Assembly: GCF_016903815.1 (NCBI RefSeq)
Contig: NZ_CP069973.1
Reading direction: 5' to 3' (one strand)
From: Escherichia coli
GTDB lineage: Bacteria; Pseudomonadota; Gammaproteobacteria; Enterobacterales; Enterobacteriaceae
Length of the DNA stretch: 64,000 nt
Made by a program: the position numbers and the translations under genes. Below the pieces are notes generated by a model. It worked only from the letters and a program-made list of their open reading frames with translations. It was not told where the DNA came from and did no database searches. Shown one piece after another: positions 1,466 through 15,898 of this stretch. Numbering within the stretch: position 1 is the stretch's first letter; each line of letters begins with the position of its first letter.

Positions 1466-4400
1466 ATGAGGCACTTTATCTTTCAGGACGAAAAATCACA
1501 TAAATTCTGGGCGGTGGAGCAACAGGGAAACGAGTTGCATATCTGTTGGGGAAAAGTTGGCACCAAAGGGCAAAACCAGGTAAAAAGTTTTGCGGATGCT
1601 GCGGCAGCGGCAAAAGCGGAGCTTAAGCTGATCGCAGAGAAAACGAAAAAAGGCTATGTGGAAAATGCTTTAGCAAACGTGCATATCCCCCCCATCACCA
1701 AAGCCACTCCTGAAGTTGAAACCTCCCCTGAGAGTAAAAACAAACGCCCATGGGTGGCTGATGATGCAGTCATTCCGGTAACTGGCGATATTAATCGATT
1801 TGCTTTTCCTCATCGCTCTCGCCCCAGAGAGATCAATTATCTGTACAAAGATGGCCAAATATGGAAGCGCATCGCGAATAACACCAGGGCATATGACCCC
1901 GACAATAATTACCGCTCTTATCCTGAAAACTGGCAGCTGGCGTTTGCCGAGTTACAAAGGCGAATTCTGAATAATCAACAAACAGGAAGTATACAATCTG
2001 ATGCGGCATTGCTCTGGAATTTATGGAACTCTTACTCTACAGATGAACTGGTCGATGACTTAGTCATTCGCTGTGGTCTGGAAACTACCGTTGAAATCGC
2101 CCTTCTCGCTCTTCAACTCAAATATAAACCAGTAAAAGCCGACGTCACCACCATTATTCCCCCTGATCTCAAAGCAGAATCACTACCGAACTGGCATCAA
2201 CGTCTATGTCATCATCTTTCACTCGCTTCAGAAGATGAGTGGCAACGCTGTGTAGATAAAGTTCTCGCTGCTATTCCCTCGCTATCCCCAGCACGGCAAC
2301 CTTTTGCGGCGTTACTGCTCCCTGAACGCCCGGATATTGCCAATGCTATGGCGCTACGTTATGCAGATCAAAACGTTCCGGCGATGACCTGGTTAAGACT
2401 GGTGGTAACCGATGACGCCGCTCTGACTACAGCAGAAAAATACGACTTCCCACCGTTGTATCATGATTTTCGCGCTTATCTGGCAATGTTGCTGGCAAAT
2501 AATGGGGTGCGCGGTGTAAGCCGGATACTTCTTGAGTTTACGGAAGAGCATTCTGACAATCCCACTTATCTCTTCGAGCGCATCAGCGAGACTGAAGATC
2601 TTGTCAAATGGCTATGGAAAACGAATCACCCGGATGCGATTCAAATTCTGATCCTCGGTGTAATTGGCAAGAAAAAGCACCTGGAATACTTAAGCAAAGC
2701 CTGTCAAAAACATCCCGCTGCGGCTCTTGCCGCTTATGCAACTTTACTGGCAATACATGAAGATGCACAGTGGCGTAAAGCGCTTGTCAAACTGATTACC
2801 GCCACGCCAGATTTAGTCACTGACGTCATTCCCTGGGTTAATGCTAAAGCGGCAGGCATCTTATCTGAATGTCGTACTCAGTTAGTCGCTGAAGAATGTG
2901 AATACGCCACTGCGGATATGTTGCCGGAGCTGTTTGTCGCTCCACCGTGGGTAATAAATAAGAAAACGAATGTAATACCCGTATTTGATTTACCGGTGCT
3001 TCCCATCCCTGCAGTCACTGACATCACGCCAGGAATTACAGAGTTAATCAGTCATACTGACATATCCAGATTCAGTGAAATCGCGCAATATCAGTCATCA
3101 CAGCAAACCTTATTTACCGACCTGCCACTAATTGAAAAAGAAAGCTGGGAGACATCTTTCATTCCTTTTACACCAGAACAACAAATCCTTTGGCAATTAG
3201 GTTTTAATGAATGGCTGCATTGCGAAGATGACTTACATGAAAAAAAATATATACCGCAAAGCGCTGTTGATGCCTTGTTGCGCTTTGATTTTCCAGCACT
3301 AAAAGCTGAGTTTGCGAAATATCACAACAATGCCAACAAAAGCTGGAATCTATCTGCGCTTTGTTACTTACCGGGACAACAGGCGATTTCATTTCTCAAC
3401 CAAATAATCATTGAGGAGCGATATTCAGGTGAGAAAGAGATTCTGGCAGTTTTTGGTAGTACGGCCATTCCTGCGTTTATGACCTGCTTGCAACGAGATC
3501 ATCAACGACTGTGGATATTCACCCTCTTTATTGGGGCCAGTGAACTAGCCTTACCAATGGCGCAGCGGTTACAGAAAAAAATGGCTTACAAGGATGCCAT
3601 TAATTGGCTGGCAAATAACCCGCGCCATGCCGCCGCCGGGCTACTGCCTTTGGCGCTGGGCAAACCGTGCCAAAATCGGGAATATGCCCGCCAGGCATTC
3701 CGCCTGCTAGTGAAATTAAACCAGCGAGAAACGATTGAAGAAATCGGCCGGAGATACAACCAACCTGATGTTTTAGCTGCGCTGGCAACATTGTTCGATA
3801 GCGATCCGCTGGAAGAATATCCCGCTAAAATCGCCCCACTGCCCGGCTTTTATCAGTTCACCTTATGGCGCAGACCACGGCTTAAAAGTAACAACCTGCC
3901 TCTGCCAGATGACGCTATGCGCCACCTGGGCACAATGTTGAGCTTTCCACGCGACATTACCTCCTACGCTGGGCTGGCGACCATCAAAGAGACCTTCACC
4001 CACGAATCACTGGCTGACTTTGGCTGGGATCTCTACACGGCATGGACAGAAGCTGGCGCACCCGCAAAAGAAAACTGGGCATTTACTTCGCTTGGGATTT
4101 TAGGCAATGACGACACCGCACGTAAATTAACCCCGCTTATCCGTGCCTGGCCGGGTGAATCCCAGCATAAACGCGCGGTTTACGGGCTGGATGTATTAGC
4201 TGATATTGGCAGCGATGTTGCGCTAATGCTGCTTAATGGCATCGCGCGAAAAATTAAATTCAAAGCATTACAGGAACATGCCCGCGAGAAAATCAACATA
4301 GTTGCTGAAAACCGTGGGCTGACTATGGCTGAACTGGAAGACCGCCTGGCTCCAGATTTAGGGCTTGATAACAGTGGCTCGCTGATACTGGATTTCGGCC

Positions 4401-13901: not shown

Positions 13902-15898
13902 ATTCACTACGTCCGGAATTATTAGAACTGACACCACAAGCTTTGACGGCGTTAAGCAATGCCGGTTTTGTTAAGCGCAGCCTTAAAGAACTGGAAAATG
14001 GCAACGTCCCGGAAATCAGCCATGAGAACGGCGCTTTAATCGCCACCTTCAGTGACGGTGTCCGCACCCAGCTGGCGAACGGTCAGGCACTGAAAGAGGC
14101 TCAGTGCAGCTGCGGGGCCAGCGGCATGTGCCGCCATCGCGTGATGCTGGTTTTAAGTTATCAGCGACTTTGCGCCACCACCCAGCCTACGGAAAAAGAA
14201 GAAGAGTGGGATCCGGCAATCTGGCTGGAAGAACTGGCTACCCTGCCCGATGCCACCCGCAAACGCGCGCAGGCACTGGTCGCTAAAGGTATCACCATTG
14301 AGTTGTTCTGTACGCCGGGCGAAATTCCCTCTGCCCGCTTACCGATGAGCGATGTACGTTTTTATTCCCGCAGCAGCATTCGTTTCGCACGCTGTGATTG
14401 TATTGAAGGAACACTTTGCGAACATGTCGTACTGGCAGTACAGGCCTTTGTCCAGGCCAAAGCGCAGCAAGCGGAATTTACTCATTTAATCTGGCAGATG
14501 CGCAGCGAACACGTCACATCATCTGACGATCCGTTTGCCAACGATGAGGGCGACGCGTGTCGTCAATATGTTCAGCAATTAAGCCAGGCGTTATGGCTTG
14601 GCGGCATCAGCCAGCCGCTTATTCATTACGAGGCTGCTTTCAGCCGCGCGCAGCAAGCGGCGGAACGCTGCAACTGGCGATGGGTGAGTGAATCGCTACG
14701 GCAACTGCGCGCCAGCGTTGATGCCTTCCACGCCCGCGCCAGCCACTATCATGCCGGAGAATGCTTACGTCAGCTTGCGGCATTAAACAGTCGATTAAAT
14801 TGCGCACAAGAGATGGCGCGGCGCGACAGTGTTGGTGAAGTTCCTCCGATGCCGTGGCGCACGGTCGTTGGCGCTGGCATTGCCGGAGAAGCAAAGCTTG
14901 ATCATCTGCGGCTGGTGTCTTTAGGTATGCGTTGCTGGCAGGATATTGAGCAGTATGGTTTACGCATCTGGTTCACCGATCCCGACACCGGCAGTATTTT
15001 GCACCTTTCGCGCAGTTGGCCGCGAAGTGAACAGGAAAACTCACCGGCAGCGACGCGTCGGCTATTTAGTTTTCAGGCTGGCGCACTGGCAGGTGGGCAA
15101 ATTGTTTCACAAGCAGCAAAACGCAGTGCCGATGGCGAGCTGTTGTTAGCTACCCGCAACCGCTTGAGTAGTGTTGTGCCGCTGTCGCCAGACGCCTGGC
15201 AAATGTTGAGCGCGCCATTGCGCCAGCCGGGCATTGTGGCTTTGCGGGAATATTTACGCCAGCGTCCCCCCGCCTGCATACGGCCTCTTAATCAGGTGGA
15301 TAACTTATTTATTCTGCCAGTCGCTGAGTGTATTTCACTCGGTTGGGATAGCAGCCGCCAGACGCTGGATGCGGAGGTAATCAGCGGCGAAGGTGAAGAT
15401 AACGTGCTGACATTATCCCTACCAGCCTCTGCCTGTTCGCCCTTTGCTGTTGAACGCATGGCAGCTCTGTTACAACAAACAGAGGACCCCGTGAGTATGG
15501 TTTCTGGCTTTGTCAGTTTTGTAGAGGGGCAATTGACACTGGAACCACAGGTAATGATGACAAAGACTCGTGCCTGGGCTCTGGACGCAGAAACTACGCC
15601 TGTGGCACCGCTACCTTCTGCCAGCGTTTTGCCTGTGCCGTCTACCGCTCATCAGTTGCTGATGCGCTGCCAGGCGTTACTTATTCAACTGCTCCATAAC
15701 GGCTGGCGCTATCAGGAACAGAGTGCTATTGGTCAGGCAGAGTTGCTGGCGAATGACCTCACCGCGGTGGGTTTTTATCGGCTGGCACATGTGTTGGCAC
15801 AATTTCGTAATACAGAAAGCGAGGCACGGGTAGAAGCAATGAATAACGGTGTTTTGCTTTGCGAACAATTATTCCCCATGCTTCAGCAACAAGGATGA
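13898..15898 (+). CDS. yehQ: Protein with two SWIM-type zinc-finger motifs (CxC...CxH)
   Basis: ATGA overlap with the yehP stop; motifs CSCGASGMCRHRVMLVL and CDCIEGTLCEHVVLAV. Confidence 0.8.
   Translation: MNSLRPELLELTPQALTALSNAGFVKRSLKELENGNVPEISHENGALIATFSDGVRTQLANGQALKEAQCSCGASGMCRHRVMLVLSYQRLCATTQPTEKEEEWDPAIWLEELATLPDATRKRAQALVAKGITIELFCTPGEIPSARLPMSDVRFYSRSSIRFARCDCIEGTLCEHVVLAVQAFVQAKAQQAEFTHLIWQMRSEHVTSSDDPFANDEGDACRQYVQQLSQALWLGGISQPLIHYEAAFSRAQQAAERCNWRWVSESLRQLRASVDAFHARASHYHAGECLRQLAALNSRLNCAQEMARRDSVGEVPPMPWRTVVGAGIAGEAKLDHLRLVSLGMRCWQDIEQYGLRIWFTDPDTGSILHLSRSWPRSEQENSPAATRRLFSFQAGALAGGQIVSQAAKRSADGELLLATRNRLSSVVPLSPDAWQMLSAPLRQPGIVALREYLRQRPPACIRPLNQVDNLFILPVAECISLGWDSSRQTLDAEVISGEGEDNVLTLSLPASACSPFAVERMAALLQQTEDPVSMVSGFVSFVEGQLTLEPQVMMTKTRAWALDAETTPVAPLPSASVLPVPSTAHQLLMRCQALLIQLLHNGWRYQEQSAIGQAELLANDLTAVGFYRLAHVLAQFRNTESEARVEAMNNGVLLCEQLFPMLQQQG

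Follow-up and report, generated by a model that had tools for sequence, protein, structure and literature searches.

The closest described relatives of the system considered here are the pairs of MoxR ATPases and VWA proteins exemplified by RavA-ViaA, CbbQ-CbbO, NorQ-NorD and CoxD-CoxE. The subject of this work is the molR(yehH)/yehI-yehK-yehL-yehM-yehP-yehQ region of Escherichia coli, studied at positions 1466-15898 of a 64,000-nucleotide stretch (hereafter the window) of contig NZ_CP069973.1 (assembly GCF_016903815.1). Where this locus is intact it likewise encodes a single-module AAA_5 ATPase, YehL, beside a VWA protein with a MIDAS motif, YehP, but the characterised MoxR systems have no equivalents of its further partners, the TIKI-like YehM, the double-SWIM protein YehQ and the large WGR-HEAT-DUF4132 proteins. 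The window copy differs from all of these systems in that the ATPase gene has been deleted. AAA_5 modules and a MIDAS domain are also combined in Midasin (Rea1), whose MIDAS domain takes hold of the substrate at an acidic residue; Midasin is a single chain of approximately 4,900 residues in which six AAA modules are fused together with a MIDAS domain, whereas the yeh ATPase and MIDAS protein are separate and small. The MoxR-vWA-based ternary conflict systems, reportedly described by Kaur, Burroughs, Iyer and Aravind in 2020, share with the yeh module a MoxR-type ATPase, a vWA partner and large associated proteins, but their beta-propeller, VMAP and effector-associated domains are missing from it. 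By analogy with such systems we consider that the intact module is probably (at roughly 0.6) an SOS-linked MoxR-MIDAS remodelling or processing complex, and that the locus has been inactivated in the strain examined here.

The assignment of the locus to the molR/yeh region, present here as a lineage-specific deletion allele, is well supported. Positions 1466-15898 were matched in 5,424 of 5,426 complete E. coli genomes, with 100% identity to strain 222 (NZ_CP020516), and the region lies between metG upstream and yehR-yehS-btsRS downstream, a site that is fixed in approximately 5,400 of the 5,426. A preliminary description of the stretch had presented a compact, uncharacterised system of six genes. 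The cluster itself is not new: it is the long-known molR/yehH-yehQ region, annotated for decades, its ATPase subfamily has a name, and its regulation by the SOS response and by BglJ-RcsB has been published. The same description had held that the gene set forms a module of no defined function, and this stands, as literature and database searches gave regulation only. Literature searches with the yeh names, with DUF4132 and DUF5682 and with MoxR, SWIM, WGR and vWA returned papers on regulation and strain typing, and those that combined MoxR, vWA, SWIM and WGR yielded no description of the yeh module.

Evidence for inactivation came when the window was aligned with two loci, one of K-12 type (L002) and one with three paralogs (L003). 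The window follows L002 through yehI as far as position 11258, equivalent to L002 position 8984, and from position 11248 follows yehM from L002 position 12977. The two flanks of this junction overlap by 11 bp, with the imperfect microhomology ATGG(T/C)CTGCCC(T/C)GG, and yehI codon ~727 is joined in frame to yehM codon ~252. The deletion took the final ~480 codons of yehI, those for DUF4132 among them, the whole of yehK, the zor-orz intergenic region, yehL and yehM up to codon ~251. In only 94 of the 5,426 complete E. coli genomes is the junction contiguous, its halves lying apart in the others. Nine codons beyond it the window has TGA where K-12 and L003 both have TGG, and this is noted in RefSeq as an ‘internal stop’. 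The 4-kb deletion at the microhomology thus brought about the fusion of yehI to yehM, which the nonsense codon afterwards interrupted. No AAA+ open reading frame (ORF) is present within 1466-15898, yehL falling inside the 3,992-bp deletion, so that of the MoxR/VWA pair only the VWA protein, with a complete MIDAS, is encoded in this cluster. The TIKI-like fold with its His and Glu residues is likewise absent from this cluster, the domain having been lost from the yehM remnant. With the ATPase, the hydrolase domain and one DUF4132 domain gone, any function dependent on the ATPase is therefore lost in this strain.

These findings alter the reading of the cluster as six genes. The six co-directional ORFs are present, and all coordinates of the 9-12 bp gaps and stop/start overlaps were borne out, but because the deletion removed yehK and yehL and cut into both yehI and yehM, the cluster consists of four intact genes and two fragments. 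The ORF that had been described as a third paralog lacking the WGR domain does lack it, YehI-type proteins being WGR-less; it is however a truncated yehI pseudogene and has no DUF4132 domain either, since it is cut at residue ~727 of 1210. The fragment is 93% identical to K-12 YehI over 732 residues with no alignment past that point, and is flagged in RefSeq as a pseudogene ‘missing C-terminus’. The Ala/Leu-rich helical ORF that had been counted as a gene (11333-12772) is the C-terminal two-thirds of yehM and corresponds to the helical part of that protein; RefSeq flags it as a pseudogene, ‘missing N-terminus; internal stop’.

The deletion has a further consequence. It has been shown that zor-orz type I toxin-antitoxin pairs sit in the yehK-yehL intergenic region of most E. 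coli, and that this region measures 1.2 kb in O157:H7 as against 0.3 kb in K-12 (PMC2887945). The region corresponds to positions 10817-11122 of the K-12 locus L002 and 14616-15762 of L003. It lies wholly inside the deletion and the strain has therefore lost those toxin genes too.

The composition of the intact module was determined by a scan anchored on YehM with one genome per species (100,044 species), which gave 328 confirmed stretches. Gene order was then analysed with home-built hidden Markov models in the best 80 of these 328 loci, drawn from the Gamma- and Betaproteobacteria, Myxococcota and Actinobacteria. Wherever enough sequence was available the order YehL-YehM-YehP-YehQ was essentially kept, with one to four DUF4132 genes directly upstream, downstream in Burkholderia and divergent in some Myxococcales. 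Systems with a single DUF4132 gene carry the WGR-containing form, and WGR-less copies occur as extra paralogs. Contigs annotated with Pfam confirmed this architecture in Variovorax, Serratia and an uncultured lineage. No extra conserved partner or effector was found in the flanks of the 80 loci, where no other family occurred in more than 15, and the system is therefore limited to five families; an intact module made up of WGR-DUF4132, YehL, YehM, YehP and YehQ is well supported. The preliminary description had named an absence of co-occurrence outside this lineage as the result that would undo its proposal, and had called for a survey across genomes; the partners travel together far outside Escherichia, and the proposal thus survives on this count. 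Homologues of YehM (DUF5682) are widespread: a profile search against 1.84 billion representative proteins returned 3,845 cluster representatives at E ≤ 1e-3, 1,436 of them at E ≤ 1e-30.

The ATPase of the intact locus, YehL, is of the AAA_5 type, with conserved Walker A (GEPGTAKS), sensor 1 (ATAN) and Arg finger (KRRF) motifs. Its closest solved relatives are the AAA modules of Midasin (E 2.5e-7), and there is a weak match to the Pfam family bpMoxR (E 0.002). YehL gives its name to one of seven MoxR subfamilies, with no function assigned (PMC3893208). An FEE motif at the Walker B position of YehL (L002 11123-12211) is conserved in 29 orthologues from three phyla. It had been expected from the window alone that the VWA/MIDAS protein would serve an ATPase, and the presence of yehL beside yehP in the intact locus agrees with this; the two genes are coupled in the genome, their order being conserved in the 80 loci.

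The second enzymatic component, YehM, is known in Pfam only as DUF5682. Sequence and profile searches of the PDB with YehM gave nothing meaningful. A model of the full-length protein made with AlphaFold2 (pLDDT 87.8, pTM 0.82) places a TIKI/TraB-like domain at residues ~1-240. The residues G8, R10, H11, E35, G199, G200 and H202 are invariant in 33 sequences and form the motifs G8-x-x-H11, E35 and G199-x-x-H202. The TIKI superfamily includes the structures of PMT, HopBA1, ChaN and RRSP and has been linked with the Ere family through a shared His-Glu catalytic mechanism (PMC6254334); matches of YehM to the Ere family fit this grouping. With its two invariant GxxH motifs and invariant Glu, YehM resembles the TIKI/TraB/PrgY/erythromycin-esterase/ChaN proteins and fits the His-Glu scheme proposed for them (PMC6254334), but it differs in being fused to a helical scaffold of ~500 residues and in being encoded in an ATPase operon. 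On the basis of this likeness and the invariant motifs, the N-terminus of YehM is predicted to be an active hydrolase of the TIKI/TraB/erythromycin-esterase type with a helical scaffold behind it. Fusions of YehM to YehP, of approximately 1,170-1,220 residues, occur in at least five clusters, three of them seen in two or three independent assemblies, and support a physical partnership between the two proteins. Both the assignment of a TIKI fold to DUF5682 and the YehM-YehP fusions are new relative to the literature found. One uncultured genome (GCA_022841245.1, positions 3227-23468 of locus L091) has two tandem copies of the module, the first with a YehM-YehP fusion; in the second copy a 580-residue HEAT_2 protein takes the usual place of the DUF4132 gene, and a divergent gene upstream encodes an ATP-dependent DNA-ligase C-terminal domain.

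YehP and YehQ are intact in the window and both were correctly recognised at the outset. YehP matches the Pfam family VWA_CoxE (E 2e-71), and the residues of its MIDAS (DxSxS...T...D), in the form DQSGS, GGGT and SDF, are kept in 31 orthologues. YehQ carries two SWIM zinc fingers with CxCx5CxH motifs, CSCGASGMCRH and CDCIEGTLCEH (Pfam E 1e-3 and 0.2), and the first of these is invariant in 30 orthologues (C70, C72, C78, H80). Sequence and profile searches of the PDB with YehP produced nothing meaningful, a profile search with YehQ found no match, and NCBIfam returned for the window proteins only a match to the WGR region and a weak VWA match. The family to which YehP belongs, together with a weak match to a putative cobaltochelatase model, could instead point to a chaperone for metal-cofactor insertion or metalloenzyme maturation, in the manner of CoxD/CoxE, NorQ/NorD, CobN-S-T or BchH-I-D; the ~1265-residue proteins would then be the large substrate-carrying subunit and the old label ‘molybdate metabolism regulator’ would reflect a cofactor role. 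The yeh module resembles the class I chelatases in the sizes of its large, ATPase and VWA proteins, the AAA_5 protein YehL matches a phage ‘porphyrin biosynthesis’ family of CobS-like ATPases, and the fold group of YehM takes in the haem-binding ChaN. We regard this explanation as improbable. No metalloenzyme or cofactor-pathway gene is conserved beside the operon in the 80 loci, cofactor insertion offers no obvious role for WGR, SWIM or LexA control, and in Deinococcus the molybdenum genes do not respond along with the DUF4132 and WGR genes. Moreover the large proteins are HEAT/ARM solenoids with no sequence match in the PDB and bear no resemblance to CobN or BchH, the large subunits of class I chelatases.

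These large proteins make up most of the cluster. The two ~1265-residue proteins with an N-terminal WGR domain were confirmed, the first (ORF1, paralog A) by Pfam, with WGR at residues 5-67 (E 1e-17) and DUF4132 at 999-1182 (E 9e-48), and the second (ORF2, the molR/yehH orthologue) by the RefSeq product name ‘WGR and DUF4132 domain-containing protein’ and by the same NCBIfam match to the WGR region as in ORF1. Both thus belong to the WGR+DUF4132 family, to which the truncated third ORF does not. The nearest solved structure to the WGR region is the WGR domain of the Bacteroides protein 2RA8. As in PARP-type proteins a WGR domain is present, here at the start of ORF1 and ORF2, but no PARP catalytic domain accompanies it; the WGR is joined instead to a HEAT solenoid, and nucleic-acid binding is assumed. 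The DUF4132 family has just two architectures, with or without WGR. A predicted model of the C-terminal 700 residues (pLDDT 85) consists of a HEAT/ARM solenoid followed by an alpha/beta domain, and matches were obtained only for the solenoid, the alpha/beta part giving nothing informative. PDB sequence and profile searches with the DUF4132 proteins also gave nothing meaningful. From the model, the DUF4132 proteins would be scaffolds composed of WGR and a HEAT/ARM solenoid, a view that is new relative to the literature found.

ORF1 and ORF2 are 47% identical overall, with 85% identity in the WGR domain, 17-44% in the middle and 67-73% around DUF4132 and near the C-terminus. Paralog A is missing in K-12-type strains, and at least 80% of the query is covered in only 996 genomes; the K-12 copy of molR is a pseudogene. 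The WGR-coding 5' ends of ORF1 (1465-1662) and ORF2 (5275-5472) are near-identical, the single K-12 molR aligning to both, which suggests that paralog A has been gained or lost by unequal recombination. Recombination between these 5' ends could have turned the three-paralog layout into that of K-12.

Is it possible that the WGR+DUF4132 proteins act alone as DNA-binding transcription regulators, their adjacency to yehLMPQ being regulatory rather than physical? In the terms of the Aravind laboratory, WGR is the domain with which ‘bacterial MolR-like TFs’ bind DNA (PMC7824862), and ORF1 and ORF2 are intact here though the ATPase is lost. Proteins of 1,140-1,390 residues made up largely of HEAT/ARM repeats are however atypical for bacterial transcription factors, and WGR-less paralogs such as YehI retain everything but that domain. 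Over three phyla the genes keep their order and lie close to the ATPase operon, which favours a shared complex over regulatory adjacency, and the idea of stand-alone regulators is in our judgement very improbable.

Support for a link between the module and the SOS response comes from the promoter. A candidate LexA box of the form CTG-N10-CAG, as expected for a member of the LexA regulon, lies just upstream of ORF1; it matches 13 of 20 positions of the consensus and is identical in K-12. Boxes of this type have a background rate of 0.011 per 320 nt, and Klebsiella grimontii and Intestinirhabdus alba have a related box at the corresponding position. This is in agreement with the listing of molR among the LexA-regulated genes with a known SOS box (PMC6590174). 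It has also been shown that BglJ-RcsB activates the molR promoter, the K-12 site being mapped with its centre 65-68 bp upstream of the transcription start (PMC3950696). The promoter region of the window (1359-1465) is 96% identical to that of K-12. In Deinococcus, depletion of DdrO strongly derepresses a DUF4132 gene and a WGR gene (PMC8533742). The suggestion that the cluster serves defence or stress surveillance is thus partly upheld for stress, by the LexA-regulon listing and the SOS box; for defence there is no direct support. Perfect CTGT-N8-ACAG palindromes occur at 15467-15482, within yehQ, and at 42563-42578, in a gene near 42.5 kb that by position is mglA; motifs of this type are no more frequent in the window than chance allows (12 observed, 17 expected). 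In K-12, although molR is a pseudogene there, combining delta-molR1 with delta-lepA gives a synthetic growth defect (PMC4245954). This defect is possibly a polar effect on neighbouring genes.

Taken together with the described systems, the components of the SOS-linked MoxR-MIDAS complex might act as follows. In Escherichia and Klebsiella the operon would be switched on by LexA cleavage or by BglJ-RcsB. The WGR-solenoid-DUF4132 proteins would serve as scaffolds or adaptors whose WGR domain touches nucleic acid in the manner of the PARP WGR at DNA breaks, with the divergent middle regions giving each DUF4132 paralog a different specificity. The conserved C-terminal part of DUF4132 would dock on a YehL hexamer and YehP. 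The MIDAS ion of YehP may take hold of an acidic residue on the partner, as happens in Midasin/Rea1 and other MoxR-VWA pairs, and the bound complex would then be remodelled by ATP hydrolysis. YehM, whose translation is coupled to that of YehP and which some lineages carry as a fusion with YehP, may provide a His/Glu hydrolase step, as a peptidase or esterase, and YehQ may make contacts to DNA or protein through its zinc fingers. A more specific version, a surveillance machine of a class not recognised before, in which WGR-tipped solenoid paralogs of differing specificity act as sensors of damaged or foreign DNA and report DNA ends or lesions to a MoxR-MIDAS motor that licenses a TIKI-type protease, is put forward only tentatively.

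Several observations weigh against the SOS-linked MoxR-MIDAS complex. Every mechanistic step is drawn by analogy. The Walker B motif of YehL reads FEE and not hDE. ORF1, ORF2, yehP and yehQ are still intact in the window despite the loss of the ATPase, which may mean either that the deletion is recent or that these genes have a role independent of the ATPase. No informative match was obtained for the alpha/beta part of DUF4132 or for the C-terminus of YehQ, and an unrecognised activity could sit in either. No SOS box was found upstream of the operon in Erwinia, Serratia, the Betaproteobacteria or the Xanthomonadales; universal SOS control was dropped on this account, and the link to DNA damage, its box being found only in Escherichia, Klebsiella and Intestinirhabdus, may be a local overlay. 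Finally, the locus is often broken. Among seven annotated E. coli genomes two are fully intact (E32 and WP5-S17-ESBL-11), one has a frameshift in yehK alone and four have at least two damaged genes, from which the module would, in this small sample, be dispensable under many conditions.

Frequent pseudogenes in E. coli have also to be considered as a sign of conflict. On that explanation the intact module would be an anti-phage or other conflict system in which the DUF4132 paralogs are diversifying sensors for foreign nucleic acid, the MoxR-VWA pair works as a switch and proteolysis is carried out by the TIKI-like YehM as effector; the window copy would then be disarmed. The DUF4132 paralogs, numbering one to four, have expanded independently in Escherichia/Klebsiella, Massilia, Duganella and Lentzea, and their middle regions are divergent with conserved ends. 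The distribution is sparse and patchy, with ~328 matches in 100,044 species genomes, a zor-orz type I toxin-antitoxin pair is embedded in the locus of most E. coli, and MoxR-vWA modules serve other conflict systems, as the Pfam name bpMoxR reflects. A hotspot of transposon insertion has been reported at the locus in ST131: in sublineage L1a the blaCTX-M-15 transposon TnMB1860 lies in the metG/DUF4132/yeh region, and the DUF4132 region is disrupted in 184 isolates (PMC9334617). TnMB1860 is not inserted in the window, and with only ~92.5% identity between the junction probe and an ST131 strain the DNA is apparently not from ST131. Much of the remaining evidence runs the other way. Neither the six window proteins nor K-12 YehI, YehK, YehL and YehM had any match in PADLOC-DB v2, the E. 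coli locus occupies its fixed metG-yehR site with housekeeping flanks and no mobile elements, and in other genera the neighbours are again housekeeping genes, differing by genus. Ratios of nonsynonymous to synonymous substitution rates (dN/dS) of 0.19-0.24 point to overall purifying and not diversifying selection. There was one weak phage match, and matches were found on 39 of 72,556 plasmids, mostly non-mobilizable megaplasmids; an origin from phage or plasmid was rejected on the same figures. A role in defence is therefore not supported by direct evidence and we consider it doubtful. PHROGs v4 contains small families that align to the yeh proteins over their full length and score very highly, YehM for example being divided between phrog_30700 and phrog_33984. 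The phage genome collection has no E. coli phage with yeh genes, and these PHROGs families are probably host genes within an over-extended prophage call.

The features of the locus are collected in the table below. The intergenic gaps between the large ORFs are of 12 nt (between 5263 and 5276) and 9 nt (between 9070 and 9080). Upstream, the stop codon of metG at 1325 is followed by the strongest terminator-like site of the scan; the hairpin beyond yehQ is likely to be the 3' end of the operon. A search of positions 1-17500 against Rfam found no RNA family, and the other 48 kb of the window, from btsSR to fruA, is made up of ordinary core genes with no mobile elements. Values of dN/dS for the ORFs against another strain were 0.08-0.24, so the ORFs are not due to chance. 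In comparison with strain E32 or L003 the DUF4132 genes gave the highest values (0.19-0.24, as above), yehP and yehQ gave 0.08 and 0.09 respectively, and metG 0.03. Judged by these ratios, the genes are real and under purifying selection that is somewhat relaxed for the large paralogs.

Table. Positions of genes, remnants and signals of the molR/yeh locus in the window.
Feature	Position	Strand	Details
metG terminator hairpin, upstream operon boundary	1335-1358	+	10-bp stem, 6 GC pairs, T-run
LexA (SOS) box candidate	1441-1456		aaCTGGATAAAATTACAGgg, CTG-N10-CAG; end 10 nt before ORF1 start codon
Paralog A (ORF1)	1466-5263	+	intact, 1265 aa; WGR, HEAT/ARM solenoid, DUF4132
molR/yehH orthologue (ORF2)	5276-9070	+	intact, 1264 aa; WGR and DUF4132; 93% alignment to K-12 molR
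Truncated yehI pseudogene	9080-11278	+	residues 1 to ~727 of 1210, 9 yehM-derived codons, stop
Deletion junction	11248-11258		short imperfect microhomology GCCTGCCCCGG; 3,992 bp absent relative to K-12
yehM (DUF5682) remnant	11249-12772	+	residues ~252-759, helical C-terminal part only
Nonsense codon (TGG to TGA) ending the in-frame yehI::yehM fusion	11276-11278	+	nine codons past junction
yehM stop/yehP start overlap	12765-12772	+	ATGTCTGA
yehP	12765-13901	+	intact, 378 aa; VWA_CoxE, complete MIDAS
yehP/yehQ overlap	13898-13901	+	ATGA
yehQ	13898-15898	+	intact, 666 aa; two SWIM zinc fingers; ~480-residue C-terminal region with no detectable homologue
Terminator-like hairpin 3' of yehQ	15977-15993	+	7-bp stem, then TTTCTTGATT

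As a deletion relic without its motor, the window copy is a natural loss-of-function allele and is for that reason unsuited for seeking the activity of the module. Natural knock-outs such as the window strain, K-12 and O157:H7 form, together with intact strains, a ready comparison set. Few uncharacterised genes of the best-studied bacterium are as large as the yeh/molR genes, and the module to which these belong spans three phyla. Recast as a MoxR-MIDAS motor combined with HEAT scaffolds that are tipped by WGR and with a hydrolase predicted to be of the TIKI type, it offers catalytic residues, candidate interfaces and inducing conditions as targets. If the tentative surveillance model were true, the core genome of E. 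coli would contain an SOS-wired proteolytic switch or immune system that has been repeatedly disabled, lineage by lineage.

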